Made by a program: the position numbers and the translations under genes. Below are positions 12,330 to 32,579 of a stretch of DNA of 64,000 nucleotides, one piece after another. Below the pieces are notes generated by a model. It was not told where the DNA came from. It made no database searches and was given only the letters and a program-made list of their open reading frames with translations. The stretch lies in the NCBI GenBank assembly GCA_963677925.2, contig CAXXYH010000004.1:2464001-2528000 (forward strand). Reading direction: 5' to 3'. The DNA is from Spirochaetia bacterium (GTDB lineage Bacteria > Spirochaetota > Spirochaetia > UBA9216). Every line of letters starts with the position of its first letter. The stretch's first letter is position 1.

Positions 12330-12346
12330 TTGGCACATATATTGCT
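12330..12346 (+). promoter_or_regulatory. sigma54 (RpoN) -24/-12 promoter
   Basis: TTGGCACATATATTGCT: GG at 12332 and GC at 12344 (GG-N10-GC), near-consensus. Confidence 0.85.
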
Positions 12347-14367: not shown

Positions 14368-14376
14368 GGTACCTGA

Positions 14377-15336
14377 ATGAACTTACTTGAAGTAAAAGAC
14401 CTTTGTGTTGACTATGAAATGAAGAAAGGCACTGCAAGGGCTGTAAATAATGTTAATTTTGAATTGAAGAAGGGTGAAACCTTCGGATTAATTGGAGAAT
14501 CGGGCTGTGGTAAAACAACAACAGCTATGGCTTTGATGGGCTTTGTTTCTCCTCCCGGAAGGATAAGTCAGGGTTCGGTTGAGTTTAAAGGCGAGGATAT
14601 AAGAACTTATTCAAAGGAAAAGATGCGTCAGCTGCGCGGTAATTCTATTTCGATAGTAAGACAGGAAGCACAGAACGCACTAAATCCTGTTTTAACTATC
14701 GGTGATCAGATTGCAGAGGTTCTGAAGGAGCATGGTGTTACAAACCAGTCTGAGGTTGATGCGAGGGTGAAAAAGCAGCTTGAAATGGTCGGTATCACAC
14801 CGGACCGTAAAAACAGCTATCCCTTCGAGTTCAGCGGCGGTATGAGGCAGAGAGTAATGATCGCTCTTGCAGCTATATGTGAGCCTGATCTGATGATCCT
14901 TGATGAGCCTATCACCGGTTTGGATGTTATTGTTCAGAGACAGCTTTTAACTCTTCTTACAGATCTTCGAAAAAAGATGAATCTGACAGCACTGCTTATA
15001 GCACATGACCTTGCAGTCATTGCTGAGATGTGTGACAGGGTTGCTGTTATGTACGGCGGATATATAGTTGAGAATGCTGAAGTAGCAAAACTGTATGAGG
15101 AGCCGAAGCATCCTTACAGCAAGGCTTTGATTGAGTCCTATCCGAAAATTACCGGTGAGAAGAAGGAGCTTAAGAGTATTCCGGGAGCGCCTCCAAAGCT
15201 GCTTGAGAAACCGGACGGCTGTCTCTTTGCGGACAGATGTCCTCAGGCTATGCCTGTCTGCCGTAAAACTGTACCTGAATTGATTGATGTAGACGGCAGC
15301 CAGGTTAGATGTCATCTGTACGGAGGGAATAAATGA
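14377..15336 (+). CDS. dppD: Dpp/Opp ABC ATP-binding protein
   Basis: GESGCGKT, FSGGMRQR, DEP, HPYS and the C-terminal Cys motif (GCLFADRC..C..CH). Confidence 0.92.
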   Translation: MNLLEVKDLCVDYEMKKGTARAVNNVNFELKKGETFGLIGESGCGKTTTAMALMGFVSPPGRISQGSVEFKGEDIRTYSKEKMRQLRGNSISIVRQEAQNALNPVLTIGDQIAEVLKEHGVTNQSEVDARVKKQLEMVGITPDRKNSYPFEFSGGMRQRVMIALAAICEPDLMILDEPITGLDVIVQRQLLTLLTDLRKKMNLTALLIAHDLAVIAEMCDRVAVMYGGYIVENAEVAKLYEEPKHPYSKALIESYPKITGEKKELKSIPGAPPKLLEKPDGCLFADRCPQAMPVCRKTVPELIDVDGSQVRCHLYGGNK

Positions 15337-16340
15337 GCGACGCTGTGAATATACTTGAGGTCAGAGACCTGAAAAAATATTTCCCGCTGAAAAAAGAGAA
15401 TATTTTCTCGAAAAAGCCTCGAAAGATACTCAAGGCGGTAGACGGGCTTAACTTTTCGGTAGGAAAGGGTGAAATACTTGGATTTGTTGGAGAGTCCGGC
15501 TGCGGTAAATCAACAATGAGCCGTTCAATTATTCAGCTAATACAGCCGACATCCGGTAATGTAATTCATGATGGAGTTGATCTTACAACACTGTCAAAGC
15601 CTGAAATGAGAGCCCGGAGAAAAAGTATACAGATGATCTTTCAGGATCCTTTCGGCTCCCTTAATCCGAGAAGATCTGTATCTGAAACTCTCCGGATGGT
15701 TTTGAAAATTCATGATGTATGTAAGACTCAGGAAGAAGAGGATCAGCTGATATATAATGTTCTTGAAGAAGTAGGGCTTACTCCGGTTGAAACCTTCTGG
15801 GACAAATTTCCGGCAATGATGAGCGGAGGTCAGCTTCAGCGTGTGAGTATGGCAAGGGTTCTGATGCTCAGACCTGATTTTATAATAGCAGATGAGCCTG
15901 TATCCATGCTTGATGTATCAGTACGTATCGGTGTTCTGGATCTTCTTTTACGGATGAGAGATAAATATAAGATATCTTTCATTTACATTACACATGACCT
16001 TGCTACTGCCAGATATGTCTGCGACAGAATTGCAATAATGTACCTTGGTAGAATTGTTGAGATGGGCCCGACAGAAGAGATTCTGCATAATCCAAAGCAT
16101 CCATATACAAAAGCTTTGATTGCGGCTGTTCCTGAACCGGATCCTACCCGTGAAAAGCTTGAACTTCCTATCAAGGAATGGACCAAGGATTCCTATATTG
16201 AGAATGATAATGCCTGTCTGTTCTTTCCCAGATGTCCGGAAGGCCGTGAAGTCTGCCGTCATAAAAAGCCGGAGATGATTGATATTGTCAAAGGGCATAC
16301 AGCTGCCTGTCATGCAGTGCATAAAGACAGCGAGTACTGA
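15333..16340 (+). CDS. dppF: Dpp/Opp ABC ATP-binding protein
   Basis: GESGCGKS, QMIFQDPFGSLNPR, MSGGQLQR, HPYTKAL and C-terminal Cys motif. Confidence 0.92.
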   Translation: MSDAVNILEVRDLKKYFPLKKENIFSKKPRKILKAVDGLNFSVGKGEILGFVGESGCGKSTMSRSIIQLIQPTSGNVIHDGVDLTTLSKPEMRARRKSIQMIFQDPFGSLNPRRSVSETLRMVLKIHDVCKTQEEEDQLIYNVLEEVGLTPVETFWDKFPAMMSGGQLQRVSMARVLMLRPDFIIADEPVSMLDVSVRIGVLDLLLRMRDKYKISFIYITHDLATARYVCDRIAIMYLGRIVEMGPTEEILHNPKHPYTKALIAAVPEPDPTREKLELPIKEWTKDSYIENDNACLFFPRCPEGREVCRHKKPEMIDIVKGHTAACHAVHKDSEY

Positions 16341-16360
16341 TTCTGATATAATAAACCAAT

Positions 16361-16383
16361 GGCCGGGATCGCCCGGCTTTTTT
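16361..16383 (+). terminator. Rho-independent terminator
   Basis: GGCCGGG-ATCG-CCCGGC followed by TTTTTT. Confidence 0.85.
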
Positions 16384-16417
16384 ATTTTATGATAAATATC
16401 AGGGATGCAATTTTACT

Positions 16418-17632
16418 ATGAGAAAGCCGTCTTCTTTGTTTGAACGGGACAGAATAGAAGAACTTAAGATAATTACAAATTTTCAACCTCTCTATTCGGT
16501 AACGGAAAAGAAATATATAGGCGTTGAAGCTCTTTCCCGTGCCGATTACAGGGGTGATTTTCTGTCTGCAGGTCAGCTGTTTTCAATTCCATCAACCGAA
16601 AATGAGAAACTGTCCCTGAATATGAAATGCATTTATTCTGCAATAAACACTTTTAAAAAGCAGAAGTACTCTGAGGAGTACACAATGTTTCTTAACTTTG
16701 ATTCATCCATCCTGGACAGCGGTTTGATTGAGGAATCTCATTTTGTTAATGTTGATCGGATTGGTGTTAATCCGAACCAGATTGTTATTGAACTTATAGA
16801 ATCCAATGTTGCTGATTTCGATCTTCTGATTAAATTTGTAAACTTCTACCGTGAAAACGGTTTTTTGATTGCGCTCGATGATGTCGGTGCAGGGTATTCG
16901 GGTCTGGACAGAATCGTGAAGATTAAACCGGATATTATTAAAATTGACCGTTCTCTGGTTAATGGTGTTTCAAAGGAATATCATAAAAGGGAAGTCTGCA
17001 GAGCTCTGGTTGAGCTTACACATAATATCGGAGCGCTTTCTCTTTCTGAAGGAGTGGAAACTCTTGAGGATGCAATAGAATGTCAGCAGCTGGGAACTGA
17101 TCTAATACAGGGATATTTCTTTTCAAAGCCACTTTCTCGGCTTCCTTCCCCATATGAAAGCAGTGAACAGGGTGATCAGCTGGTTACCGCTTGGAGAACT
17201 AAGGTTGAGTTCAAACAGAAAATATTGACACATAATATAAAGAGCATAAAATCCAGAGCTTCTGAGATTACGGAAAGCCTGGAAAGTAAGGATCCGGCAG
17301 AAGCAGGCTGTATTTTACTGGCGTATCTTGATTGTTCATCTGATATTGAATGCATGTATATTCTGAATGAGAAGGGTATTCAGGTATCTGAAACTTTTAT
17401 TAACCCTGAAGTGAGCAGAAAAACACATTCCCTTTTTCAGCCGGCCAGGTTGGGGACGGACCATTCACTGAAGCACTATTTTCAGAAGCGGCTCAGGAAT
17501 CAGAAGCATTATATATCAGACCCTTACATATCCAGAGCAACAGGAAATTTCTGCAGAACTATATCATGCAGCTGGCATGATGGTTCAGCCGCAGAATATT
17601 ATCTGTGCCTCGATATTTCCCATTCTTATTAA
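16418..17632 (+). CDS. EAL-domain c-di-GMP phosphodiesterase with C-terminal PDC/Cache-like domain (YkuI-like)
   Basis: FQP..EALSR, FLNF, IELIES, ALDDVGAGYSGL, IKID, EGVE, QGYFFSKP; C-terminal YISDPYISRATGNFCRTIS. Confidence 0.88.
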   Translation: MRKPSSLFERDRIEELKIITNFQPLYSVTEKKYIGVEALSRADYRGDFLSAGQLFSIPSTENEKLSLNMKCIYSAINTFKKQKYSEEYTMFLNFDSSILDSGLIEESHFVNVDRIGVNPNQIVIELIESNVADFDLLIKFVNFYRENGFLIALDDVGAGYSGLDRIVKIKPDIIKIDRSLVNGVSKEYHKREVCRALVELTHNIGALSLSEGVETLEDAIECQQLGTDLIQGYFFSKPLSRLPSPYESSEQGDQLVTAWRTKVEFKQKILTHNIKSIKSRASEITESLESKDPAEAGCILLAYLDCSSDIECMYILNEKGIQVSETFINPEVSRKTHSLFQPARLGTDHSLKHYFQKRLRNQKHYISDPYISRATGNFCRTISCSWHDGSAAEYYLCLDISHSY

Positions 17633-18197: not shown

Positions 18198-19775
18198 ATG
18201 GGTATTGGAACATATGAACAGTACAAAGAACGACTTCTCAAGATGAAGCCAAATGTATATTTACATGGTGAGAAAGTAGACAGATCAGGCGATTGGATTG
18301 ACGGCGGAACATACGTTATGAAGCAGACTTATGACTGTGCTAACGATCCTGATTACGAAGATCTCTGTACTGCGACTTCACACCTTACAGGTGAAAAAAT
18401 CAGCCGATGGACTCACATTCACAGAACCCAGGACGACCTTTTCAAAAAGCAGCTCATGACCAGGGTTATGTGTCACAGAGTAGGCGGATGTACACAGAGA
18501 TGTATGGGGACAGATGCACTCAACGCTCTTGCTGTTGTAACATATGATATGGATCAGGCTTGCGGAACCAAGTACCACGAGAGATTCAACAAGTACCTTG
18601 AGTACTCACAGAAGAACGACCTTGTTGCTAACTGTGCTCAGACTGATGTTAAGGGATCAAGAAATCCAAAGTACAAGAGAGCTCATATGCAGCCGGATCC
18701 GGATCAGTTTGTACATGTTGTTGAGACAAATGTAGACGGTATCGGTCTTGACGGAAAGCCCTGTAAGGGTATGATCGTTCGCGGTGCAAAGATTTGTAAC
18801 TCAAACGCTCCTTACGTTGATGAGATTATTGTAACTCCCACAAAGTTTATGGGATCAGGTGATGAAGCATATGCCTGTGCATTTGCTCTTCCTGCAGACT
18901 GGCCCGGCGTTAAGCTGATGGCTCTTCCAGGAAAGCATCATAAGAGAAAGCATATCGAAGCTCCTTTTGCACTCGTAGGTGATGTTGAATCACTAACAAT
19001 CTTTGATGACACTTTCGTACCTGAAGACAGAATCTTCATGAACGGTCTTGATCAGCCGGATGTTCTTCAGTATGCAGGTTACCTTGCACTGATGTTTGCT
19101 CACTTCCACAGACATTCATACACAGGTTGTAAGACTGCTGTATCGGAAGTTATTGCAGCACAGGCGGCACTTGTAGCTGATGTTAACGATATTGCAAAAG
19201 AGCACCACGTAAGAGAGAAGATTTCTGACATCGTCGGTACTGCTGAGCTCGTTTTTGCAGCGGGTCAGGCTGCAGCCCTCAGAGCTGTTCAGTTTCCTAA
19301 CGGTTCATGGGTTCCGGATGAGGTTCTTACAAACGCAGGTAGAAAGCTTGCTGGTCAGAAGATCTACCACGAGTATGAAACACTTGCAGACCTTACAGGC
19401 GGTATTTCTGCATCACTTCCTACAGAAGAATCTTTCTACGATCCTGAAACTGCAGAACTCTGTAACAAGTACATCATGAGAAATCCTGCCTACACAGCAG
19501 AAGAGACTCACAGGGTTATGAGAATGATGGAAAACAAGCTTTGTGATGCATTCGAAGGCGCACAGGCTGTAGCCGGTGTTCACGGCGGCGGTTCACCACT
19601 TATGGAAACTATCGTTATGATGGCAAGATATGACCTTGAAGCTCTTAAAGATATTGCAAAATACCTTGCAGGTTTCGAAGGCTACGAAAAGTGTCCGAGA
19701 TACGAAAGAGCAACTGCTACACCAAGAGCTATGCTTGACAGATTCAGAAAAACTGAAATGGGAAAAAAGGCTTAA
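18198..19775 (+). CDS. 4-hydroxybutyryl-CoA dehydratase-like FAD/[4Fe-4S] protein (HpaB/AbfD family)
   Basis: CTQRC and HRHSYTGCK Fe-S ligand motifs, QTDVKG, VRGAK, DLTGG, HGGGSP; GGAGG RBS. Confidence 0.85.
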   Translation: MGIGTYEQYKERLLKMKPNVYLHGEKVDRSGDWIDGGTYVMKQTYDCANDPDYEDLCTATSHLTGEKISRWTHIHRTQDDLFKKQLMTRVMCHRVGGCTQRCMGTDALNALAVVTYDMDQACGTKYHERFNKYLEYSQKNDLVANCAQTDVKGSRNPKYKRAHMQPDPDQFVHVVETNVDGIGLDGKPCKGMIVRGAKICNSNAPYVDEIIVTPTKFMGSGDEAYACAFALPADWPGVKLMALPGKHHKRKHIEAPFALVGDVESLTIFDDTFVPEDRIFMNGLDQPDVLQYAGYLALMFAHFHRHSYTGCKTAVSEVIAAQAALVADVNDIAKEHHVREKISDIVGTAELVFAAGQAAALRAVQFPNGSWVPDEVLTNAGRKLAGQKIYHEYETLADLTGGISASLPTEESFYDPETAELCNKYIMRNPAYTAEETHRVMRMMENKLCDAFEGAQAVAGVHGGGSPLMETIVMMARYDLEALKDIAKYLAGFEGYEKCPRYERATATPRAMLDRFRKTEMGKKA

Positions 19776-19896: not shown

Positions 19897-20790
19897 ATGA
19901 AAGACAGAGTTTTGATTCTTAAACTTGCTGCCCTTATAACAGCTGTTATTTTGATTGGAAGCTGCGGACTAGCCGTTGGTTCAGTATCACTGTATATAAC
20001 AGATTCGCCTGTTGAGGATGAAGATATTGAAAGTGTATTTATAACAGTGAATTCGATAGAATATCATATAGAAGAACCTGATGAGTGGATAGAAGTTACT
20101 GATTTTGAAGGCCCGGTTACCTATGATCTTTTATCACTTACAAACGGTGTAAGTGAAATGATGGGTGAATTTACATTTCCCTCAGGCCGGATAACTCAGC
20201 TCAGGTTTCATCTTGATGCGCCTGCTACCGGAGACAGTCCTCCTTCCAATCCCGGCTGTTATGTGAAACTTGCAGGAGACAGTGCTGAATATCCGTTGTT
20301 TGTACCAAGCGGAAGTACTTCCGGGTTCAAGGCTACCGGAGCCTTTGATGTTCCGCTGTATTCTTCTGTGACTGTTACCGCAGATTTTGATGTCAGAAAA
20401 TCGGTAAAGAATACCGGTGATACCGAAAACCCTCTATATAAACTGAGCCCCACTATCAGGCTTGTTGTTGATAATGAAGCAGGTAAAATAGAGGGCGACG
20501 TCACCTACGGCGGCAGCAGCAGTCTTGTTGTATTCAGTTATAAAGACGGTGAATATTCTTCTGACGAATTGAGTTCTGATCCGTTATTCAGTTCGGCAGT
20601 GAGCAGTGCTTCAGTATCTCCAGGAGCTGATGGTAGTGACTTTATTCTTGCGTATCTTTCTGCAGGAATATACGATCTTGTTTTTGCTGAATTTGATTCG
20701 GACGGGAATTTTATTGTTTCGAGTGTGAAAATTAAGGAAGATGTTACGGTCACAGAGGGAGAAACCTCTGAAGTTGGTTTTGGTTACTGA
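19897..20790 (+). CDS. DUF4382-like lipoprotein
   Basis: Lipobox LIGS-C; LYITDSP, YDLLSLTNG, VPSGSTSG, ADFDVRKSV and YKLSPTIR motifs. Confidence 0.75.
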   Translation: MKDRVLILKLAALITAVILIGSCGLAVGSVSLYITDSPVEDEDIESVFITVNSIEYHIEEPDEWIEVTDFEGPVTYDLLSLTNGVSEMMGEFTFPSGRITQLRFHLDAPATGDSPPSNPGCYVKLAGDSAEYPLFVPSGSTSGFKATGAFDVPLYSSVTVTADFDVRKSVKNTGDTENPLYKLSPTIRLVVDNEAGKIEGDVTYGGSSSLVVFSYKDGEYSSDELSSDPLFSSAVSSASVSPGADGSDFILAYLSAGIYDLVFAEFDSDGNFIVSSVKIKEDVTVTEGETSEVGFGY

Positions 20791-20806: not shown

Positions 20807-21514
20807 TTATTCATCATATATTGAGACTATACCGTTAATGGTTTTTTTAAGGGATTCCTGAAAAGTGTTAACTGCGCCTTCGGAATCCTTTTCTTTTATA
20901 TTTTTCACCAGCTCAATGGTGTTTTTGTAAAGCTGCTCATTCCCATGCAGCGTAAAGTATTTCTCCCACAGCATTGTAGAGAGCTCCTTAAAGGAATAGA
21001 AAATAACCGGCAGCATTGTGTTGCCCGAAAGAATGCAGAGTTCCTGGTGGAATATGAATATAGTTTCGGCAGAGCTTTCAGGTGTCTTTGATTTTCCAAA
21101 ATTGTCTGCAAGCTTAGTCAATACCTCTATATCTGATTCTGATACAGCAGGCACCAGGAGTTCAAGTGCAAGTGTCTCAAAGACCAGTCTGATTTCAAGA
21201 AGTGACTTCATTTCAGTTTTTTTCAGATTGCCGCCGTTGTACCGCAGAATGGCCATCAGAGTTTCAACAGTTCCCCGCCTGTGGTAGTCAGCTACAAATG
21301 CTCCGATTCTCGGCTTTATTTCAACAAAGCCTATGCCTGCCAGTTCTGTAAGTCCTGAATTTACCACAGCACGGCTCACACCCATTTTTTCCGCCAGTTC
21401 TCTCTCAGGGGGAAGTCTGTCACCAATACTTAGTTTTCCTGAAATTATCATATTCTCAATTTCTCTTACGAAAAGATCCTTTAATGAGGGCGAGGACAGT
21501 CTTGAAAACTCCAT
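20807..21514 (-). CDS. GntR/FadR-family transcriptional regulator
   Basis: GDRLPPERELAEKMGVSR wHTH plus FCD domain; start at 21514 behind AAGGAG. Confidence 0.92.
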   Translation of the reverse strand: MEFSRLSSPSLKDLFVREIENMIISGKLSIGDRLPPERELAEKMGVSRAVVNSGLTELAGIGFVEIKPRIGAFVADYHRRGTVETLMAILRYNGGNLKKTEMKSLLEIRLVFETLALELLVPAVSESDIEVLTKLADNFGKSKTPESSAETIFIFHQELCILSGNTMLPVIFYSFKELSTMLWEKYFTLHGNEQLYKNTIELVKNIKEKDSEGAVNTFQESLKKTINGIVSIYDE

Positions 21515-21531
21515 AAAAAAGCTCCTTGTAC

Positions 21532-21542
21532 TGGTCATACCA
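21532..21542. promoter_or_regulatory. FadR-type operator TGGT-N3-ACCA
   Basis: TGGTCATACCA just upstream of the GntR/FadR RBS, in the divergent intergenic region. Confidence 0.55.
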
Positions 21543-21624
21543 AAGACCAAAAAATAATTATATTATGAAAGAATCAATAAATCAATATATTTAAACAAAA
21601 TAGAACGCAATAGATAAATATTTA

Positions 21625-21653
21625 TTGACAATACCAGAAAGTGGAATTAGACT
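21625..21653 (+). promoter_or_regulatory. sigma70-type promoter of the hypB/hypA operon
   Basis: TTGACA-17 bp-TAGACT. Confidence 0.65.
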
Positions 21654-21679: not shown

Positions 21680-22354
21680 ATGAATATTACCTTCTCAATG
21701 CTGCTGGCTGCAGCATTCACAGCGGGAGTACTGCATACTCTGACAGGTCCCGATCATTACGTTCCGTTTATTGTTTTTTCAAGTTCAGGAAACTGGTCTC
21801 TTAAGAAAACGCTCGGCATGACCCTGATCTGCGGACTGGGGCACATCCTTTCAGCAGTCCTCGTTGCATATGGAGCACTGAAAATCAGTTCAATCATGCT
21901 AAGCCTTGAAACGATTGAAGCAATCCGGGGCGGTTTTGCAGCCTGGGCATTGACTGTCTTCGGGTTTACCTATGCGCTTTGGGGACTTAGAAAGATTATA
22001 TCAGGAAGAAAAGCTGTGAAGGAACATATTGAGAATGTCGGACAGAACAGCAGTCTCAGTAAACGAAAGAATGTAGTTAGCTGGACGCTTTTTCTAATCT
22101 TTGTCTTCGGGCCTTGTGAACCTCTAATTCCCTTCATCCTTTTTCCGGAATCTTCAGTATCAGGCAATCAGATTATTGCAGTAACTTCAGTTTTCGGTGC
22201 AGCAACCCTGCTAACAATGCTTACAGTAGTAACATTTGCAACAGCAGGTTTAAAAAGATTTCCGCTGCATAATTTTTTCAGCCGCTTCGGACATACCCTT
22301 GCCGGCAGTATTGTAGGCTGCTGCGGACTTGCTATGACCTTTCTTGGACTTTAG
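21680..22354 (+). CDS. Putative nickel/cobalt permease (UreH/NiCoT/DsbD_2-like)
   Basis: GVLHTLTGPDH, GLGH and GPCEP motifs with about 6 TM helices; start behind AAGGAG. Confidence 0.72.
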   Translation: MNITFSMLLAAAFTAGVLHTLTGPDHYVPFIVFSSSGNWSLKKTLGMTLICGLGHILSAVLVAYGALKISSIMLSLETIEAIRGGFAAWALTVFGFTYALWGLRKIISGRKAVKEHIENVGQNSSLSKRKNVVSWTLFLIFVFGPCEPLIPFILFPESSVSGNQIIAVTSVFGAATLLTMLTVVTFATAGLKRFPLHNFFSRFGHTLAGSIVGCCGLAMTFLGL

Positions 22355-22375
22355 TAAGGCTTAAGGAGTACGACA

Positions 22376-23047
22376 ATGGATAAATACAAGGTTATAGAAA
22401 TTAAAAAAAATGTTTTTGAAAGCAACGATAATGAGGCTGCAAAATTGAGAGCTGGACTGAGAAAAGACGGGGTTTTCCTTCTTAACCTGATGTCATCTCC
22501 CGGATCCGGAAAGACCACAACCGTAATGCAGACTATCGGCAAACTCAGGGACAGTCTGAACATCCGTGTTCTTGAAGCAGATCTTGATTCTGATGTTGAT
22601 GCTGCAACTGTTCACAATTCAGGGGTCAAGGTTCTTCAGCTTCATTCAGGCGGAATGTGTCATTTGAATGCAGATATGGTCAGACAGGGGCTGACCGAAC
22701 TGGGCACAGAGGATACAGACCTTATTATCCTGGAGAATATTGGAAATCTGATATGTACTGCAGAGTTTGATACAGGAGCCGCAAAAAACGCAATGATACT
22801 CAGTGTGCCGGAAGGTGATGACAAGCCGCTGAAATATCCATCGATGTTCAAAATGACTGATGTTCTTATAGTTAACAAGATTGATGCAATGGAGTTCTTT
22901 GATTTTAATCTTGAGCGGTTGGAAGGATATGTAAGGAAACTGAATCCGGATGTGAAGATATTTCCCGTATCCGCAAAGACGGGTGAAGGCATTGATGCCT
23001 GGACTCAGTGGCTAAAAAATGAAGTCGAACTTTGGAGGAAATCCTGA
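22376..23047 (+). CDS. hypB: Nickel-insertion GTPase HypB
   Basis: NLMSSPGSGKTT, GGMCHL, ENIGNLIC, SVPEGDDKPLKYP, NKID, VSAKTGEG. Confidence 0.93.
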   Translation: MDKYKVIEIKKNVFESNDNEAAKLRAGLRKDGVFLLNLMSSPGSGKTTTVMQTIGKLRDSLNIRVLEADLDSDVDAATVHNSGVKVLQLHSGGMCHLNADMVRQGLTELGTEDTDLIILENIGNLICTAEFDTGAAKNAMILSVPEGDDKPLKYPSMFKMTDVLIVNKIDAMEFFDFNLERLEGYVRKLNPDVKIFPVSAKTGEGIDAWTQWLKNEVELWRKS

Positions 23048-25736
23048 TGGACTACAGAGAAAAGATTCTCGATCTTGCAAATCATATAAACAGGACAAAG
23101 AAGGGCTCTTCAAGGGCAATTAAACCAGGTGATCCTGAATACATGATTCTGGAACCTGTTGTAACCGATGCAATGGCTGAGGCTGCTATGTGCCTTGAAT
23201 TGCGGAAACCTAAAAGTGCAGTCGAGGTTGCCTTGCTCTGCGGCAGGGATTCTGCTGATACTTCAGCACTGCTCTGGGAACTTGCAATGGCCGGCGTCTG
23301 TTTTGTAAATGAAATAGACGGCACCGACAAGTACTGGCTTGAAACCTGGATTCCGGGTGTCATGGAAATGATGACCAACAATAAAGAGAATGTCGCCAGA
23401 TTTCCGCAGATAGCCGAAGCTTTCGAGGCATACGGCCGGGTACGCGGACCTCAGTCTGCAGGAAATTTTCCGGTTGGTGTAGGTCTAATGCGGGTTATTC
23501 CAATTGAACGCTCTATAGAAGGCGAGACCCGCAAGGCCTCCTATGAGGAAGTTTCGAAATACCTGAATGAAAACGACCGCTTTTCTGTTTCCGACTGTGC
23601 CTGCCGTACAGCCCGTGAGGCAATGGGTGAAGGCTGCGGCCATCTGAAAGAAGACATGTGCATACAGATGGGACATGCGCGGAGTACTACATTCGAACCG
23701 GGCGCGGCCGTGAGATAGATCGTAACGAAGCCTTCGAAATCATCAAAAGGGCTGAAGATAATGGACTGATGCACCAGATACCCAATACCGACGGTTCAGG
23801 TAACACGCATGCAATATGCAACTGCTGCGGCTGTTCCTGTCTGTCTTTAAGAACAGCAGAGATGTTTATCAACAACGATATGGTCCGTTCAAATTATGTA
23901 TCTGATGTAGATATTGATAAATGTGTGGCCTGCGGAGAATGCGTTGAGGTTTGTCCGGTAAATGCTCTTCAGCTTGGTCATAAACTCTGTTCGGATACAC
24001 CCCAGAATATCCCGGTACGTGAAACCCCCGAGGTCACAGAATGGGGACCTGAAAAGTGGAATCCTGATTATCGAACAAACAGGCAGGTCGTTCTTGAATC
24101 AGGAACCAGTCCATGCAAGGCTGAATGTCCTGCACATATAGGTATTCAGGGTTATGTAAAACTTGCTTCACAGGGAAAGTATACAGAGGCATTAGAGCTT
24201 ATTAAAACCGAGAATCCCTTTCCCGCGATCTGCGGCCGTATCTGTCCGCGAAAATGCGAATCTGCATGTACCAGGGGCGATATAGATGACCCAATTGCGA
24301 TTGATGACATCAAGAAATTTATTGCCGAGAAAGACCTTCATGCAGAAACCAGATTTATTCCCAGGAAACGTCATGACTACGGTAAAAAAATTGCTGTAAT
24401 AGGCTCAGGCCCGGCAGGGCTTTCCTGTGCTTACTACCTTGCTGTAGACGGTTACAAAGTTACTGTTTTTGAAAAAAACAGCAGCCCCGGCGGAATGCTC
24501 ACAACGGGCATTCCTTCATTCAGGCTTGAAAAGGATGTCGTCAGTGCAGAAATTGACATTATCAAAGAACTCGGCGTAGAAATCCGCTGCGGAGTGGAGG
24601 TTGGAAAAGATGTTTCAATTGACGGACTTCGAAAAGACGGGTTTCAAGCCTTCTATCTTGCAATTGGTGCACAGTCGGGAAGAGCCCTTGGAATTGAAGG
24701 TGAGGATGCAGAAGGGGTCATTACAGGAGTTGATTTTCTGCTGAATGTAAGCTGCGGTGAACTGAATGATTTCACAGGGAGAACAGTAGTTATCGGCGGA
24801 GGCAACGTAGCAATTGATGTAGCCCGGACGGCTGTAAGATCCGGGGCTGATAAAACCGAAATGTTCTGCCTGGAAGGCAGGGAACAGATGCCGGCGCTTG
24901 AAGAAGAAGTTGATGAGGCGCTTTCTGAAGGAATTTATATTAACAACTCCTGGGGACCGAAAAGAATAATCACCGAAAAGGGAAAAGTGAAGGCTGTTGA
25001 GTTTCGAAAGTGCCTATCGGTATTTAATGCAGAGGGAAGGTTTTCACCGGTATACGATGAATCGGATACGCTTACTGTTGAAGCCGACAATGTTCTGATT
25101 TCTGTAGGACAGGCAATTGACTGGGGGAATCTGCTTGATGGTACCGGCGTAAAACTGAACCCCAACAACACCGTGATTGCCGATCCGGAAACATGGCAGA
25201 CCGGTGAGGCTGATATCTTTGCCGGAGGCGATGCTGTAACAGGACCAAAATTTGCCATTGACGCAATTGCTCTGGGCAAGGAGGGTGCTATATCCATCCA
25301 CCGCTACGTACAGCCGGGGCAGAGTCTTGTTTACGGACGAACTAAACGCAACTATAAACCGCTTGATAAGGAAAACCTCATCCTTGCCGGATTCGACAGA
25401 ATGCCGAGGCAGAGCACATCTCATGTGAGCGGAGATGATTCGAAAAAAACCTTCAGCGATCTTCGGGAAACCTTTACCGAAGAACAGGTCATCAAAGAAA
25501 CTGAACGCTGTCTTGGATGCGGAGCAGTGGTTGTTGATAAATTCATGTGCGTCGGCTGTGGAGCCTGTACCCTGAAGTGCCGTTTTGATGCAATAAAACT
25601 TGAAAGAAAATACGACGCTGAAGGCCTGGTACTTACCGATATAAGACCCGCTGTTATGAAGCAGATGGTGAAGCGGAAGCTGAAAATAGCGGTTAACAAA
25701 CCTATCAAGGCTGTCAAGTCAGCTCTGGGCGGGTAA
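23047..25736 (+). pseudogene. Large Fe-S/FAD NAD(P)H oxidoreductase (Cys-rich N-domain, ferredoxin, GltD-like module, ferredoxin), split by a 1-nt frameshift near 23679
   Basis: ORFs 23047-23718 and 23658-25736 join into one ~896-aa frame if one base is added in CATGCGCGGAG (CIQMGHA-A-EYYIRTG). Motifs: CACR..GCGH..CIQ, CNCCGCSC, CVACGECVEVCP, PCKAECP, CGRICPRKCESAC, GSGPAG, GGGNVAID, CVGCGACTLKC. Could be a sequencing error. Confidence 0.8.
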
Positions 25737-25740
25737 TGCT

Positions 25741-26082
25741 TTGCACGAACTTGGTGTTGTAATTGAAGTGATTAAAACGGTTGAAGAAGTAGCCGCGGAG
25801 AGCGGAGTAACCAGTATTGAGTCGCTTGTTCTTCAGATAGGAGAACTTTCCTCAATAGTTCCCCGTTATGTGCAGGACTGCTATCCTGCAGCCGCCGACG
25901 GAACACTTCTTGAAAATACAAGGCTTGAAATTGAGATCCTGCCCGGAAACGGGCTCTGCCGCGGCTGCGGTAAGGTATTCAACCTTGCAGCGGAGAAAAG
26001 TATTTGTCCATCCTGTTCGGCTTCGGATTTTGAAATCCTGGGCGGACGGGAATTTATGATCAAAGAAATTGTCGCCTGTTAG
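25741..26082 (+). CDS. hypA: Nickel metallochaperone HypA
   Basis: MHE N-terminus (TTG start), IGELS, CRGC and CPSC Zn finger, GREFMIKEI. Confidence 0.93.
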   Translation: MHELGVVIEVIKTVEEVAAESGVTSIESLVLQIGELSSIVPRYVQDCYPAAADGTLLENTRLEIEILPGNGLCRGCGKVFNLAAEKSICPSCSASDFEILGGREFMIKEIVAC

Positions 26083-26116
26083 GCCGGCATGAAAATCTAT
26101 TTATATGGAGTAATAG

Positions 26117-27118
26117 ATGTTTACTTTTAATACTGCCGCCGGCGCCAATATTGCGTCGGCCTGGGGAATGTGGATAGTTGTGTTCGCGGCCCTGTTTATT
26201 CTTAATGAACTTGCACGCAGGTGGAAGGCTGCTGGATTCACAGCCTTTGTAGTTCTGCCTGCAGTACTTACTGTTCTGTGGTTTACAGTAATGAGTGATA
26301 CCACTTATACCGACTGGTTTCACCTGGCAAAGGTGTATTCATCAACTGCCGGCTGTATTGGTTTCTGGCTTATACGTCACCTTAAAGGAACAAACAAACT
26401 TACCGGTAAGCAGTGGAGACTTTCGGACAAGAAACTCGCTCTGATATTTCCTCCGCTGATCCTTGCTATCAATATTCTTGAAGCATGTGTTAGGGATTTT
26501 CAGATTGGTCTTCAGTACACAGGCGGCGGAATAACTGCCGATGAGGGAGTTTTTGTTCTTGGCGGTATATGGAACTATATGAACGGAATTGCAGGACTTC
26601 TTAATATTATAGCTATCACCGGATGGTTTGGTATTGTAATCAGGCGGCAGACAGAATGTGATAAGAGCCGCGACATGCTCTGGCCTGATATGCTCTGGTT
26701 CTGGATCATTGCCTATGATATCTGGAACTTCACATACACATACAACTGTCTGCCTCATCATGCATGGTACTGCGGTTTTGCCCTGCTGCTGGCGCCTACA
26801 CTATGTGCTTTCACAGTAGGCAAGGGGGCATGGCTTCAGCACCGTGCTCAGACTCTGGCACTCTGGTGCATGTTTGCACAGACCTTTCCGGCATTCCAGG
26901 ATGAGGGGATGTTTGCTGTTACCTCTACCTACAAGCCGGGACTGTATATGTTCTGGGGAGTACTTTCACTTGCAGTTAATATTGCAGTAATCGTGTATAT
27001 GCTTATCCGGGTTAAGAAAACCGGACGCAATCCGTATAAAGGAGAACTTTACACTGATAACCCGAAGTATCTTGAAGTTAAGGCTCTTGCAGAGGAACCT
27101 GCCGGAGCGGCTGTCTAA
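26117..27118 (+). CDS. Conserved polytopic membrane protein (DUF5692-like)
   Basis: About 9 TM segments; WFHLAKVYS, INILEA, WIIAYDIWNFTYTYNC and WLQHRAQTL motifs. Confidence 0.7.
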   Translation: MFTFNTAAGANIASAWGMWIVVFAALFILNELARRWKAAGFTAFVVLPAVLTVLWFTVMSDTTYTDWFHLAKVYSSTAGCIGFWLIRHLKGTNKLTGKQWRLSDKKLALIFPPLILAINILEACVRDFQIGLQYTGGGITADEGVFVLGGIWNYMNGIAGLLNIIAITGWFGIVIRRQTECDKSRDMLWPDMLWFWIIAYDIWNFTYTYNCLPHHAWYCGFALLLAPTLCAFTVGKGAWLQHRAQTLALWCMFAQTFPAFQDEGMFAVTSTYKPGLYMFWGVLSLAVNIAVIVYMLIRVKKTGRNPYKGELYTDNPKYLEVKALAEEPAGAAV

Positions 27119-27150
27119 CTTTAGGGTAAACTAAACGTGTTCGGCTAATC

Positions 27151-27176
27151 ACCGCGTCTTCGGGCGCGGTTTTTTT
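27151..27176 (+). terminator. Rho-independent terminator
   Basis: ACCGCGTC-TTCG-GGCGCGGT followed by a T-run. Confidence 0.88.
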
Positions 27177-27305
27177 ATTTTTTATAAGTAATTAGTAAAT
27201 AAATTGCTTATATATAGAAATAATGTTATATTGAATACAGAAAGTTGAAGCAAACCAAAGTTCCGCATCTCTGAACCAATTTTCGAAGCTAAATCGGAGG
27301 TGTTT

Positions 27306-28166
27306 ATGAAATTAAATGGAAAAGTAATTGTTATCACCGGAGCAGGCGGAGGAATAGGACGTCAGCTTGTTGTTCAGGCTCTTGATGAAGGAGCATCAGT
27401 AGCGGCAGTGGATATAAATCCTGATGCCCTTGAGGCAACACAGCTTGCAGCCGGAAAACATGCCGACAGGCTGTCTCTTCACACTGCCAATATTACAGAC
27501 AGACACGCTGTCTGCGGTCTTCCTGAGGCTGTAAAAGCAGCCCATGGTAAAATTGATGCCATTATAAACAATGCAGGTATTATTCAGCCTTTTATTCCCT
27601 TTGCTGAACTTGACTATGAAACTATTCAAAGGGTTATGAATATAAATATCTACGGCATGATGTATATGACCCGTGCTTTTCTTCCGTATATCGGTGAATC
27701 CGCTGAGGGGTATATTGCAAACGTTTCAAGTATGGGCGGATTTCTGCCTGTTCCCGGTCAGGCTCTCTACGGGGCTTCAAAGGCTGCAGTAAAGCTGCTT
27801 ACAGAAGCCCTCAGATCAGAGCTGATAAATACAAATATACATGTTTCTGTAATTATGCCGGGCGGTGTTGCCACTGATATTACAAAGAATTCAGGTGTAG
27901 AAGCAAGTTCAAATGCTACCGAAGAAAACAGCTCAAACTACAAGATGACTACGCCCGAGGAAGCTGCGGCAATAATATTATCAGGAATAAAAAAGAATAA
28001 ACCGCGAATCCTTGTCGGTAAAGACGCAAAATTTATGGATTTTCTCAGCCGTCTGGCTCCTGTAAAGGCCAGCCAGTACATAACCAAAATGATGGCATCA
28101 CTTGTGGAACAACGGGGCGGAAATGAGGGACTGAAGACTGCAGGCTGTCTTGGGAAAGATAAGTAA
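27306..28166 (+). CDS. Short-chain dehydrogenase/reductase
   Basis: TGAGGGIG, NNAG, SS, YGASK; GGAGG RBS before ATG 27306. Confidence 0.93.
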   Translation: MKLNGKVIVITGAGGGIGRQLVVQALDEGASVAAVDINPDALEATQLAAGKHADRLSLHTANITDRHAVCGLPEAVKAAHGKIDAIINNAGIIQPFIPFAELDYETIQRVMNINIYGMMYMTRAFLPYIGESAEGYIANVSSMGGFLPVPGQALYGASKAAVKLLTEALRSELINTNIHVSVIMPGGVATDITKNSGVEASSNATEENSSNYKMTTPEEAAAIILSGIKKNKPRILVGKDAKFMDFLSRLAPVKASQYITKMMASLVEQRGGNEGLKTAGCLGKDK

Positions 28167-28269
28167 TGGCGTAATTGCAATTTAATCAAAATCTAACAAT
28201 CTTAATCCTATAATAGCATTAACTTAATATATGAACTGCTTAAAGCAGGCTGATTATAGGAGTGAATAT

Positions 28270-28980
28270 TTGGATGAGGATAAGATTAAAAGCAATACAC
28301 TGACTGCCGAGGCTCTGGGAACATTTTTTCTTGTACTGATTGGCTGCGGCTCAATCGTTGTAAATAATGCAGCGGACGGGGTAATTGGCCATGCGGGTAT
28401 TTCTGCGGTTTTTGGAATGGTTGTTATGGCCATGATCTACTCAGTGGGCAATATTTCAGGAGCTCATCTGAATCCTGCTGTGACTATAGGCTTTCTTTTT
28501 GCTAAAAGAATCGGGATAAAGCAGGCTGTGTTCTACATAATATTTCAGATTATCGGGGCTGTTGCAGCTTCTCTGCTTTTGAAGTTTCTTTTTCCCCAGA
28601 GTCAGGGGCTTGGTGAGACCATTCCGGCGATAAATGTGATTAGGGCATTAACAATAGAAGTTGTGCTTACCTTCCTGCTTATGTTTGTAATTCTTAACGT
28701 CTCTACCGGTCATATGGAGAAAGGGATCATGGCCGGTGTAGCGATAGGTGCAACCGTCTGTATTGCTGCAATAGTCGGTGGCCCTCTCACCGGCGCTTCA
28801 ATGAATCCCGCACGCTCGCTTGGTCCCGGACTTATAAGCGGAAACCTTGCTCATATCTGGATCTACATAGCCGGTCCTATCATCGGTGCTGTTCTTGCCT
28901 CTCCGCTCTGCCGAATACTTCAGGGGCCCGAATGCTGTTATGTGGATTGTGATGTAAATAAATCGGTCGATGACCGATAA
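28270..28980 (+). CDS. MIP-family channel (aquaporin/aquaglyceroporin)
   Basis: AEALGTF, SGAHLNPAVT, GASMNPARS; TTG start at 28270 behind GGAG (28231 is the alternative). Confidence 0.92.
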   Translation: MDEDKIKSNTLTAEALGTFFLVLIGCGSIVVNNAADGVIGHAGISAVFGMVVMAMIYSVGNISGAHLNPAVTIGFLFAKRIGIKQAVFYIIFQIIGAVAASLLLKFLFPQSQGLGETIPAINVIRALTIEVVLTFLLMFVILNVSTGHMEKGIMAGVAIGATVCIAAIVGGPLTGASMNPARSLGPGLISGNLAHIWIYIAGPIIGAVLASPLCRILQGPECCYVDCDVNKSVDDR

Positions 28981-29054: not shown

Positions 29055-32000
29055 ATGGCTAAGAAAGTATTGACGATTGACGGTAACGAAGCGGCGGCTC
29101 ATGTATCCTACGCATTCACCGAGATTGCCACTATATATCCAATTACACCCTCATCCCCGATGGCCGAGAAAGTAGACGAATGGTCCGCAGTTGGCAGAAA
29201 AAACATCTTCGGACAGCCGGTAAGGCTTGTTGAGATGCAGTCGGAAGCCGGAGCTGCCGGTGCTATGCATGGAACCCTTGAAGCGGGTGCACTTGCTACG
29301 ACTTATACGGCCTCACAGGGCCTTCTTTTAATGATTCCGCCCATGTACAGGATGGCAGGACAGCTTCATCCGGCGGTTATGCATGTGAGCTCCAGAACAC
29401 TCGGCACACATGCCTTTTCTATATTCGGAGATCATTCAGACGTAATGAGCTGTCGGCAGACCGGTTTTGCCATGCTTGCAAGCTCAAGTGTACAGGAAAT
29501 TGCCGACCTGGCCGCAGTAGCCCATATGTCGGCAATTAAGGCCCGTGTTCCATTTCTTCATTTCTTTGACGGTTTCAGGACTTCGCATGAAATTCAGAAG
29601 GCTGAATTTCTCGAATATGAAGACTATGCAAAACTGGTTGATATGGACGCGGTAAACGCTTTTCGCAGAAGAGCTCTCAACCCGGAACACCCGGTAATGA
29701 AGAGTACTGTTCAGAATCCCGATATGTTCTTTCAGGCCAGAGAGGCGATTAACCCTTACTACAACCAGGTTACTCCGATTGTTGAAGAGTACATGGAAAA
29801 AATGAACAGTATCACCGGCAGGAAGCTGGGACTGTTCAATTACTACGGAGATCCGCAGGCTGAAAATATAATAATAGCCATGGGTTCAGTAAGCGGTACA
29901 ATTGAAGAAACCGTTGATTACCTTCGCGGAAAAGGTGAAAAGGTCGGTTTCATTCAGGTTCACCTGTACAGACCTTTCTCTGTTAAGCATCTGCTTGATC
30001 TTATTCCGGCAAGTGCAAAGAACATTAGCGTGCTTGACCGGACAAAGGAGCCCGGAGCCATCGGTGAACCGCTGTACGTTGATGTTACATCAGCTGTTTA
30101 TTCTGCAGGACGGCAGATTCGAATCACCGGCGGCCGTTATGGACTTTCCTCAAAGGATACTACACCTGCCCAGATAGCCGGAGTCTTTGCGAACATGAGA
30201 TCTGCCGAACCTAAAAACGGCTTTACAATCGGTATTGAAGATGATGTGACCCATCTTTCACTAAAAGACGAACCGGTTTATATAGAAACTAAAAACATCA
30301 GCTGCAAGTTCTGGGGGCTCGGTTCGGACGGAACAGTCGGTGCAAACAAAAACACTATTAAAATTATCGGCGACTATACAGATCAGAATGTTCAGGCTTA
30401 TTTTGAATACGATACCAAGAAATCATACGGAATTACCAAATCAAACCTCCGCTTCGGAAATGAAAAGATACGCTCCAGTTATCTGGTAAAATCAGCAGAT
30501 TTTGTAGCCTGCCACAATGCATCATTCATTGACAAGTACGACATGCTGACGGATCTAAAACCCGGAGGAACCTTCCTTCTTAACTGCGGCTGGAATGCTG
30601 ATGAGCTTGAAGCCAACCTGCCTTCATCGGTTAAGAAAGGCCTGGCGGATAAGAATGTGAATTTCTTTACCATTGATGCAACTGCAATTGCTGAAGAGCT
30701 TGGCCTTGGAAACAGGACAAATACGGTACTTCAGGCCTCTTTCTTTAAACTTGCAAATATTATTCCTGTTGATGATGCTGTTAAGTACATGAAGGAAGGC
30801 ATCAAAAAGACCTACTTCAAAAAGGGTGAGGCTGTTATCAAGCTTAACTATGATGCCGTGGATAAGGGTATTGACGGAGCAGTCAGGGTGAATGTCCCTG
30901 AAGCCTGGAAATCAGCACCTGCCGATCCCGTTCATCCGGTAAATCCAGAATGGCCGTCATTCGTAAAGAATATACTGATTCCCGCAAATGCGCAGCGGGG
31001 CGATGAACTTCCGGTTAGTGCATTCAACGATATTGTTGACGGTGCTGTAAAGCTTGGAACCTCCCAGTATGAAAAACGCGGCATAGCCGTGAGTATTCCC
31101 GTATGGCAGCCGGAGAAATGTATTCAGTGCAATCAGTGTGCATATGTCTGTCCCCATGCTGTAATCCGCCCCTTCCTGCTGACAGACGAAGAGGCTTCCA
31201 ATGCTCCCGAGGGATTCAAGCTTGCAGAAACAAAGGGCAAGATGCCTGAGGGGCTTAAGTACAGTATTCAGGTCAGTACAATGGACTGTACCGGCTGCGG
31301 TATATGCGAAAACACATGTCCGGCAAAGGAAAAGGCTCTTGTAATGACGCCTTTTACTCCGAGCGCCGAATATGACGCATGCTGGGAGTACGCTTTTAAA
31401 CTGCCTGAGAAGGAAAATCCTGTTAGAAAGACTACGGTCAAGGGCAGTCAGTTTGAACAGCCTCTGCTTGAGTTCTCCGGTGCATGCGCCGGCTGCGGCG
31501 AAACACCCTATATCAAGGTTGTTACCCAGCTTTACGGCGACAAGATGTATTTTGCCAACGCTACCGGCTGTACCCAGGCATGGGGCGCCGCGATGCCTTC
31601 AATACCTTATACCGTAAATAAGAAAGGGAAAGGGCCGGCATGGTCGAATTCCCTGTTTGAAAATAATGCAGAGTTCAGCCTCGGAATGGCGCTTGCCGTA
31701 ACCCAGCAGAGAAACCGCCTTAAGGATCTGGCCTCCGGGCTTCTTGAAAGCACCCCTGACAGTGAACTAAAAGAGTCTATTACAAAATGGCTTGATACCT
31801 TCAGCAGTGATGCCGAATCTGAAGCCGCCTCAGTAGAACTTATATCGAAGCTTAAAGCATACAGCCCCTCAGCAGAGGAAAAGGATGCGGTTTCGGTTAT
31901 CCTTGAAAACGATGATCAGCTTGCAAAGAAGATGATGTGGATGATAGGCGGGGACGGCTGGGCCTATGATATCGGCTACGGCGGTCTTGATCATGTTCTT

Positions 32001-32579
32001 GCCCTCGGCGAGGACATCAACATCCTGATTCTTGATACAGAGGTGTATTCAAATACAGGCGGTCAGTCTTCAAAGGCTACCCCCATTGGAGCAGTGGCAC
32101 AGTTTGCTGCCTCGGGTAAGAAGGTCGGCAAGAAGGATCTTGCCGCCCAGGCTATTGCCTACGGAAACGTTTATGTTGCTCAGGTAGCAATGGGAGCCAA
32201 CCAGGGACATCTTATCAAGGTTCTTGAGGAAGCGGTCAATTATCCCGGACCGTCTCTCGTAATTGCATATGCACCCTGTATAGCACACGGCCTTAAGCGC
32301 GGAATGAAGGATGCTCAGGAGGAAATGAAGCTGGCGGTAGATACAGGTTACTGGCATCTGTTCAGGTATAATCCCGCTCTAAAGGATGAGGGGCAAAATC
32401 CATTCCAGCTTGATTCAAAGGAACCTTCGGTTGAGCTTGGAGAGTTCCTGAAGAGGGAAACAAGATATTCCGCGCTTGAGATTACATTCCCTGATGAGGC
32501 AGAAAGGCTTTTTGCCGAAGCTGAACGTCAGGTGAAGGAAAAATTCCGCAAATATAAGATGATGAGTGAGAGTTATTAG
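29055..32579 (+). CDS. nifJ: Pyruvate:ferredoxin (flavodoxin) oxidoreductase
   Basis: YPITPSS, MQSEAGAAG, FFDGFRTSHE, CIQCNQC, CTGCGIC, FSGACAGCGETPY, GGDGWAYDIG, YSNTGGQ. Confidence 0.97.
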   Translation: MAKKVLTIDGNEAAAHVSYAFTEIATIYPITPSSPMAEKVDEWSAVGRKNIFGQPVRLVEMQSEAGAAGAMHGTLEAGALATTYTASQGLLLMIPPMYRMAGQLHPAVMHVSSRTLGTHAFSIFGDHSDVMSCRQTGFAMLASSSVQEIADLAAVAHMSAIKARVPFLHFFDGFRTSHEIQKAEFLEYEDYAKLVDMDAVNAFRRRALNPEHPVMKSTVQNPDMFFQAREAINPYYNQVTPIVEEYMEKMNSITGRKLGLFNYYGDPQAENIIIAMGSVSGTIEETVDYLRGKGEKVGFIQVHLYRPFSVKHLLDLIPASAKNISVLDRTKEPGAIGEPLYVDVTSAVYSAGRQIRITGGRYGLSSKDTTPAQIAGVFANMRSAEPKNGFTIGIEDDVTHLSLKDEPVYIETKNISCKFWGLGSDGTVGANKNTIKIIGDYTDQNVQAYFEYDTKKSYGITKSNLRFGNEKIRSSYLVKSADFVACHNASFIDKYDMLTDLKPGGTFLLNCGWNADELEANLPSSVKKGLADKNVNFFTIDATAIAEELGLGNRTNTVLQASFFKLANIIPVDDAVKYMKEGIKKTYFKKGEAVIKLNYDAVDKGIDGAVRVNVPEAWKSAPADPVHPVNPEWPSFVKNILIPANAQRGDELPVSAFNDIVDGAVKLGTSQYEKRGIAVSIPVWQPEKCIQCNQCAYVCPHAVIRPFLLTDEEASNAPEGFKLAETKGKMPEGLKYSIQVSTMDCTGCGICENTCPAKEKALVMTPFTPSAEYDACWEYAFKLPEKENPVRKTTVKGSQFEQPLLEFSGACAGCGETPYIKVVTQLYGDKMYFANATGCTQAWGAAMPSIPYTVNKKGKGPAWSNSLFENNAEFSLGMALAVTQQRNRLKDLASGLLESTPDSELKESITKWLDTFSSDAESEAASVELISKLKAYSPSAEEKDAVSVILENDDQLAKKMMWMIGGDGWAYDIGYGGLDHVLALGEDINILILDTEVYSNTGGQSSKATPIGAVAQFAASGKKVGKKDLAAQAIAYGNVYVAQVAMGANQGHLIKVLEEAVNYPGPSLVIAYAPCIAHGLKRGMKDAQEEMKLAVDTGYWHLFRYNPALKDEGQNPFQLDSKEPSVELGEFLKRETRYSALEITFPDEAERLFAEAERQVKEKFRKYKMMSESY

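Follow-up and report, generated by a model that had tools for sequence, protein, structure and literature searches.

Introduction

The closest described system to the one analysed here is that of IsrA, the putative isoprene reductase of Acetobacterium wieringae ISORED-2, a protein of 901 amino acid residues that carries two CxC motifs (residues 180/182 and 254/256) and a six-cysteine ('Cys6') cluster V, which was proposed as its nickel site; the isr operon is described as containing two hypA genes and one hypB gene, in a host without [NiFe]-hydrogenase and hypCDEF (Kronen et al., 2023, mSystems, PMC10134865). The same source gives the neighbours among 988 IsrA homologues as HypA (0.73), HypB (0.56), DUF5692 (0.4), and TetR (0.21), reports homologues in Spirochaetes, places an oleate hydratase beside two of the Acetobacterium homologues, and puts the identity between IsrA and the other Acetobacterium homologues at only 47-49% (PMC10134865). 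In two 2026 preprints on Pelotomaculum, the nickel dependence of IsrA-type enzymes is still presented as a hypothesis. Here, we describe a five-gene unit from a Spirochaetia bacterium that encodes HypB, an iron-sulfur (Fe-S) flavoprotein that probably belongs to this family, and HypA; it lies in a 64,000-nucleotide stretch of DNA (contig CAXXYH010000004.1, positions 2,464,001 to 2,528,000), which we call the window and whose first letter is position 1 in all window coordinates given below.

The initial annotation of the window had put the flavoprotein forward as a new candidate nickel enzyme. In this it had been anticipated, since the hypothesis, the neighbouring genes, and the Cys6 site were already in print (Kronen et al., 2023, PMC10134865), and the window taken alone would be a modest result, one more member of a published family.

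Results

An operon for an IsrA-like flavoprotein and its putative chaperones

In our reading, the operon encodes both an IsrA-family ('clade 9') Fe-S flavoprotein and a HypB and HypA of its own, and a site in the N-terminal domain (N-domain) of the flavoprotein, loaded with metal by these chaperones, would reduce a substrate; for family membership and chaperone mechanism jointly, we estimate a probability of about 0.7. The predicted protein has the ∼900-residue length of the family, a Cys6 site with two CxC motifs, and a hypA/hypB/DUF5692 neighbourhood. The functional tie between chaperones and flavoprotein appears well supported by the genome comparisons presented below, whereas the presence of nickel, the position of the metal, the way electrons flow, and the identity of the substrate are what we infer.

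As the initial annotation had it, and as can be read directly from the window, the five genes form one tight unit on the + strand with a divergent regulator gene. The unit opens with a 224-residue DsbD_2/UreH-like membrane protein (21680-22354; DsbD_2 24.1 bits, cut-off 24.9) and continues with hypB, coding for a nickel-chaperone GTPase (22376-23047; TIGR00073 239.2 bits, cut-off 121.2), the IsrA-like Fe-S flavoprotein gene (23047-25736; ∼896 residues allowing for a missing base, recognized from Pfam matches, a structure model, and Cys conservation), hypA, coding for a nickel metallochaperone with a TTG start (25741-26082; PF01155 106.6 bits, cut-off 28.9), and a gene for a DUF5692 membrane protein (26117-27118; PF18948 392.7 bits). 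The hypB stop codon and the ATG of the flavoprotein gene have one base in common in a TGATG junction, and the spacing between the flavoprotein gene and hypA is 4 bp.

hypB and hypA accompany the enzyme gene in several phyla

To place the operon among its relatives, we took the best 80 of 556 relatives from a scan of one genome per species and located their neighbours by tblastn. hypB lies directly upstream of the enzyme gene in 72/80 loci (70 found by script, plus L007 and L036, in which the genes overlap), hypA is found downstream at a distance of no more than 1.3 kb, likewise in 72/80, and both flank the gene in 68/80 loci, which belong to several phyla; at least one chaperone gene is present somewhere in the locus in 76/80. 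The other members of the window's unit recur less often: a DUF5692 homologue is found in 45/80 loci, a GntR homologue in 22/80, and a UreH-like membrane protein in 1/80, namely L007, a near-identical locus from a metagenome-assembled genome (MAG).

The two chaperones have the residues expected of their families. Window HypB contains the P-loop GSGKTT and the motifs GGMCH, ENIGNLIC, and NKID, keeps the CH...C metal site, and is without an N-terminal Cys-rich or His-rich extension. In HypA, residues M1, H2, E3, C73, C76, C89, and C92, that is, the MHE N-terminus and a zinc site made of two CxxC motifs, are invariant among 48 cassette HypA sequences, although window HypA scores 74.3 bits against the stricter equivalog TIGR00100, below the 88.1 cut-off. 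The MHE residues of HypA and the GGMCH...C residues of HypB bind nickel in studied homologues, as restated by Kronen et al. (PMC10134865).

The initial annotation had called for trees to look for a dedicated chaperone clade, and the HypB tree shows one. In an unrooted tree of 98 rows (quick IQ-TREE run, LG+G4, SH-aLRT support only), drawn from genomes that carry the enzyme and including several long-branched non-cassette rows, a branch with an SH-aLRT of 100% separates 74/74 cassette copies and 6 others from 13/13 hydrogenase-linked copies (those within about 7 kb of a large-subunit match) and 5 others. Of the six other copies on the cassette side, two belong to additional hypB-oxidoreductase-hypA cassettes, one stands by itself in a genome in which the cassette is without hypB, and three are paired with hypA, the stretch examined containing no oxidoreductase. 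HypA shows a similar division: cassette HypA proteins are 53-92% identical to the window's copy, compared with 28-30% for the HypA proteins encoded beside hydrogenase-linked HypB. In several Clostridia (loci L125 and L126 among them), open reading frames (ORFs) of ∼360-390 residues align with the [NiFe] large-subunit model over its positions 1-69 only, at a distance of 1-1.5 kb from a hypA-hypB pair of the hydrogenase-type clade; these probably encode the short large subunits of group 4 energy-converting hydrogenases.

HypB also follows the enzyme where hydrogenases are missing. The [NiFe]-hydrogenase large subunit (PF00374) has no match in 23/50 cassette genomes, of which 21/23 have a single HypB, and two or more HypB copies occur in 19/27 cassette genomes with a PF00374 match. 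In a survey of 401 Spirochaetota genomes (N-domain at E ≤ 1e-8, HypB at E ≤ 1e-30, PF00374 at E ≤ 1e-5), we found the N-domain in 92, HypB in 135, and PF00374 in 138. Among genomes with the N-domain, 73 have both HypB and PF00374, 17 have HypB without PF00374, 1 has PF00374 without HypB, and 1 has neither; among genomes without the N-domain, the corresponding numbers are 44, 1, 20, and 244. The 263 PF00374-free genomes include 18 with HypB, 17 of which have the N-domain, so that HypB is present in 17/18 genomes with the N-domain versus 1/245 without it. HypB therefore follows the N-domain almost perfectly in hydrogenase-free Spirochaetota, the kind of co-occurrence that the initial annotation had proposed to survey. 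In one family (f2), N-domain and HypB occur in the same 11/50 genomes and PF00374 in 0/50, and HypA was found in 16/16 of the other genomes with N-domain and HypB but no PF00374, besides the window's own. It should be noted that these 17 genomes fall in 10 genera and are related, so that the counts overstate independence. The sole exception in the three-way table is G233, a Spirochaetota genome of 91% completeness with two HypB and two HypA matches, no PF00374, and no N-domain.

The window's own genome (5.04 Mb, 99.63% complete) was searched as a whole with profiles. There was no match in it to the [NiFe]-hydrogenase large subunit PF00374 or to HypD (PF01924), for both of which positive controls matched, nor to urease alpha or LarC, and the sole Prismane hit, considered as a possible carbon monoxide dehydrogenase (CODH), is the hydroxylamine reductase Hcp (867 bits, cut-off 367). 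The statement that the window has no [NiFe]-hydrogenase, hypCDEF, urease, or CODH can thus be extended to the genome for the large subunit, HypD, urease alpha, and CODH, with HypC, HypE, and HypF outside the search. In this genome, only the hypA and hypB of the operon score above the family cut-offs. It had been foreseen that they might be the genome's only copies, serve a hydrogenase elsewhere, and lack conserved linkage; they are indeed the sole ones, but the genome has no hydrogenase match and the linkage is conserved. Sole copies, kept linkage, a HypB clade of their own, and phyletic tracking all point to a tie with the embedded flavoprotein rather than with a hydrogenase, as had been proposed. 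A second, weak HypA/HypB-like pair near 802-806 kb of C4 was rejected as a Hyp pair: that locus (L005, 56-3261) encodes an 80-residue zinc-ribbon protein, an ABC-type ATPase, a 236-residue P-loop NTPase, and a 411-residue protein.

A conserved Cys-rich domain precedes an NfnB-like core

The flavoprotein consists of a winged helix (residues 1-137), a Cys-rich domain (residues ∼140-282), a ferredoxin motif, an NfnB/GltD-like core that binds flavin adenine dinucleotide (FAD) and NAD(P)H and contains two clusters, and a C-terminal dicluster motif. In Pfam terms, the C-terminal ∼550 residues are an NfnB/GltD/dihydropyrimidine dehydrogenase (DPD)-type module (Fer4_20 82.6 bits, Pyr_redox_2 92 bits, and the dicluster motif). 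An AlphaFold model of the intact orthologue from L007 (pLDDT 92.9, pTM 0.91) matches NfnABC (9bov_A) over this core with a Foldseek E value of 2e-47, with further matches to StnABC, NfnI, DPD, and the beta subunit of glutamate synthase. Relatives of ∼890-905 residues from Clostridia, Spirochaetes, delta-proteobacteria, and Bacteroidales are 70-81% identical to the C-terminal piece of the window protein, and the mean column identity among eleven of them is 81%.

The N-terminal part is a different matter: residues 1 to ∼282 match no Pfam or NCBIfam model. Modelled alone, the N-domain reaches a pLDDT of 87.9, and residues 4-137 fold as a winged helix, for which VIA structure searches return matches at Z 7.1-7.5 that are of little informative value, the arrangement being a common one. 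A Foldseek search of the N-domain model against the PDB gave no match at E ≤ 0.001, and a phmmer search of the PDB with the Cys-rich residues 137-282 gave chance rows only (E 0.29). The structure searches, which were made with the whole N-domain and barely probed the Cys-rich part by itself, returned no solved relative of that part, which leaves none from which to tell its cofactor.

The Cys/His-rich N-terminal domain noticed at the outset is nonetheless real and conserved. As judged from 69 relatives that are 25-84% identical to the L007 N-domain, six cysteines are near-invariant: C184 and C186 (both kept in 69/69), C205 (67/67), C258 (63/65), C260 (61/65), and C265 (60/64). C197 (58/68) and H243 (60/68) are usually kept, and C261 and C263 are kept in about two thirds of relatives (41/64 each). 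The window's gene is the sole N-domain gene in its own genome.

Conjugated fatty acids as a substrate lead

Clustering of neighbours revealed a helix-turn-helix gene and a gene for a 420-residue flavoprotein just upstream of hypB in 15/80 loci (L039, at 4200-5462, and L027, L031, L032, L037, L042, L044, L059, L064, L066, L070, L071, L073, L080, and L081). [quoted passage not shown] On the HypB tree these 15 loci are dispersed, with one, L071, inside the window's subclade. Taken together, the isomerase neighbour and the action on conjugated dienes proposed for the family suggest conjugated fatty acids, and the best substrate lead is therefore, in our view, a hydrophobic unsaturated carboxylate such as conjugated linoleic acid (CLA). 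Isoprene is an unlikely substrate of the ∼70%-identity subclade. One may go further and suppose that this subclade, whose genes frequently have those of a DUF5692 membrane protein and a GntR/FCD regulator as neighbours, is the long-sought reductase of bacterial fatty-acid biohydrogenation, a nickel-dependent enzyme whose Ni-Fe-S N-domain would hydrogenate the unactivated conjugated C=C bonds of PAI-made CLA, with the stand-alone paralogues discussed below as a wider family that would use the same module with other electron donors; we hold this extended proposal to be doubtful.

Observations that weigh against the proposed role, and alternative readings

Several observations weigh against the reading of the operon as an IsrA-family enzyme with its own metal chaperones, and we present them here with the alternatives on which they bear. 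The window protein was likened to IsrA by way of the latter's published description, and no metal analysis of any family member was found in the literature searched, as was the case for a biochemical characterization of the family or a link between CLA reduction and HypA (most subscription journals lie outside the scope of this search). Neither chaperone gene is nearby in 4/80 loci (L010, L016, L034, and L078), and hypA is far from the enzyme gene in two Treponema genomes. The window's own genome contains no PAI-like isomerase, so that the fatty-acid lead rests on other genomes and is indirect for this organism.

A more specific difficulty comes from stand-alone paralogues of ∼360 residues, found in many Spirochaetota and up to six scored copies per genome in certain of their families, in which a winged helix and a Cys-rich domain, ∼30% identical to the N-domain and with no Pfam or NCBIfam model in their N-terminal part, are followed by a dicluster (2×[4Fe-4S]) ferredoxin. 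All 11 that we tracked (L150-L160; for example, L153 at 1438-2520 and L159 at 1390-2472) keep C184, C186, C197, C205, H243, C258, C260, C261, and C265, with C263 replaced by D in 2/11, and in 0/11 loci is hypA or hypB found within 1.5 kb. Since the Cys positions are kept without adjoining chaperones, the Cys site may be an ordinary, if unusual, Fe-S site, and HypA and HypB may then act on the flavoprotein in some other manner, by providing another metal, by placing a structural ion elsewhere, or by gating the assembly of an unusual Fe-S cluster. Replacement of C261 and C263 in about a third of the relatives and the lack of a solved structure like the Cys-rich part speak for this possibility as well, and L148 has N at both 261 and 263 although HypB is adjacent. 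Against it stands the retention of the nickel-binding residues of both chaperones; HypB is also present in 63/63 genomes that have only the stand-alone form, but nearly all of these have a hydrogenase match, so this finding does not discriminate as to whether the Cys site needs nickel. On balance, we judge a role other than nickel delivery to the N-domain to be unlikely. We also considered whether C261 and C263 co-vary with chaperone adjacency and saw no pattern, given that L148 is N/N with HypB and that the stand-alone proteins keep C261, and mostly C263, without it. The stand-alone gene in L153 adjoins a TetR regulator, a 4HBT thioesterase, and an enoyl-CoA hydratase.

It could also be that the chaperones serve another nickel protein, encoded elsewhere in the genome, and that it is functionally irrelevant that their genes surround that of the flavoprotein. 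The window's genome has at least three strong LarA-like (Lar_N) genes outside the window (L087 and L088), which are possible nickel users and would be candidate clients, in the absence of a LarC match; moreover, HypB is present as a single copy in 8/27 of the PF00374-positive cassette genomes, where the cassette copy may also serve the hydrogenase. The flanking of the gene by chaperones in several phyla, the separate cassette HypB clade, and the distribution of HypB among hydrogenase-free Spirochaetota are all at odds with such an arrangement, which strikes us as most improbable.

Finally, the assembly as given carries a frameshift in the flavoprotein gene, which appears as two ORFs, 23032-23718 (228 residues) and 23658-25736 (692 residues), owing to one missing base near 23677/23678. 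Taken at face value, this would make the gene a pseudogene in this strain, inactivated by a 1-base deletion in a decaying operon. Homologues read ...MCIQ[LM]GHAAEYYIRTGRGR... over the break, and the near-identical L007 locus has one base more (CATGCAGCGG versus CATGC-GCGG in the window) and an intact 896-residue gene from the matching ATG. We compared Logan contigs over window positions 23300-24100: a contig of run X1 (49 kb, depth 7.8) has an extra C after 23677 and is otherwise identical over 801 bases, and a contig of run X2 has, like L007, an extra A after 23678. Either base restores ...GHAAEYY... (His-Ala-Ala-Glu). X1 may be the sample from which the window was assembled, in which case its contig serves as a check on the consensus and not as an independent strain. 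With the frame restored in both contigs, an error in the assembly consensus is the simplest reading, and an intact gene is probable. At 95-96% identity to the L007 protein, its two pieces contain no further stop, and the flanking genes are intact. A decaying operon is accordingly very unlikely, and the repair that had been thought necessary before expression of the gene is probably superfluous.

Control signals and neighbouring genes

Upstream of the operon, a promoter-like site (TTGACA-17-TAGACT, 10/12 consensus) at 21625-21653 on the + strand is followed by AAGGAG and the ATG at 21680, and a terminator-like hairpin found by sequence scan, with an 8-bp stem, 6 GC pairs, and a T tract, lies downstream at 27151-27180 on the + strand. 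Both signals are present as first described, and neither type is in excess of shuffles: the scanned region contains 10 promoter-like sites against a shuffle mean of 10.3, and 7 terminator-like hairpins against 6.1 in shuffles, so that the two sites are consensus matches only. The divergent regulator (20807-21550, − strand) had been labelled FadR. It is a GntR/FCD protein (Pfam GntR 62.1 bits, FCD 32.8 bits) whose FadR_C score of 19.6 bits is below the 23.6 cut-off and which scores 46-48 bits against FadR equivalogs with cut-offs of 189-249.

The label of Ni permease for the 224-residue membrane protein is best taken as putative, given the sub-threshold DsbD_2/UreH-like match and its occurrence in a single related locus. 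Its Protein Atlas neighbours are DsbD_2-bearing clusters; a cluster named 'putative Nickel transporter UreH' also appears, once, at rank 21. The protein contains the motif HTLTGPDH, which we associate with nickel permeases, and a role as a nickel permease is possible. For the DUF5692 protein, Protein Atlas returned only DUF5692 clusters.

Farther out, the flanking genes encode an HpaB-family protein with HpaB_N and HpaB domains (18198-19775) and a DUF4382 protein (19897-20790) on one side, and a short-chain dehydrogenase (SDR; 27300-28166), an ORF at 28231-28980, and a 1174-residue ORF (29055-32579) on the other. These genes do not recur beside the cassette in other loci, with the exception of the SDR gene, which recurs in L007. 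In that locus (12186-16502), the genes for the DUF5692 protein and the SDR are separated by a 1438-residue ORF that has no counterpart in window positions 27119-27299. A 1085-residue ORF of the window contains, at 42697-44106, a second GltD/NfnB-like module, which has no N-domain and shares 36% identity with flavoprotein residues 355-826.

Discussion

In the mechanism that we propose, NAD(P)H would reduce the FAD in the NfnB/GltD-like core, electrons would run through the four canonical [4Fe-4S] clusters to the N-terminal Cys-rich site, and the substrate would be reduced there; HypB, as a GTPase, and HypA would load a metal, which is most likely Ni(II), into this site or next to it. That nickel is held in the Cys-rich domain had already been inferred in print, and the IsrA-type family may be called a suspected nickel enzyme family. 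To our knowledge, fewer than a dozen types of nickel enzyme are known, and a HypA/HypB-fed flavoprotein that reduces unactivated double bonds would, if the proposal is true, add one more. Our comparisons strengthen the published case in three respects, in that the chaperones track the enzyme in the absence of hydrogenases, form their own clade, and share a recurrent neighbour in a homologue of linoleate isomerase, and they provide concrete substrates to test and cysteines to mutate.

How, then, does the system compare with those already known? From residue ∼345 onwards, the flavoprotein resembles NfnB, GltD, and DPD (9bov_A, 8oh5_C, 5jca_L, and 1h7w_B) at 29-37% identity and Foldseek E values of 2e-47 to 2e-32, over both the Fer4_20 two-cluster domain and the FAD/NAD(P)H domains, whereas those proteins are without the winged-helix and Cys-rich N-domain and are not encoded with HypA and HypB. 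The chaperones resemble the HypA and HypB of [NiFe]-hydrogenase and Helicobacter urease maturation in family scores, the MHE N-terminus, the zinc site, and the GTPase motifs, and differ from them in the partner enzyme, of which there is no match here, in the HypA score below the TIGR00100 cut-off, and in the separate HypB clade. The Cys-rich site, with the triplet C261-G262-C263, is similar to the A-cluster of acetyl-CoA synthase, in which a Cys-Gly-Cys triplet holds the distal nickel; no sequence or fold match to that enzyme was obtained in any search, in which the Cys-rich part was barely probed by itself. The A-cluster was named as a resemblance by Kronen et al. (2023, PMC10134865).

The likeness is closest to IsrA and its clade 9. 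The proteins have in common a length of ∼900 residues, an N-terminal extension of ∼300 residues, an NfnB-like core, FAD and NAD(P)H sites, and two pairs of [4Fe-4S] motifs, and the CxC motifs at 180/182 and 254/256 of IsrA stand against 184/186 and 258/260 in the window protein. HypA, HypB, and DUF5692 neighbours and a host without [NiFe]-hydrogenase are likewise common to both. The operons themselves differ: isr has two hypA genes, a gene for a 350-residue ferredoxin, and another gene order, whereas the order in the window is permease-hypB-oxidoreductase-hypA-DUF5692, where the first gene is the putative permease, with a GntR/FCD regulator.

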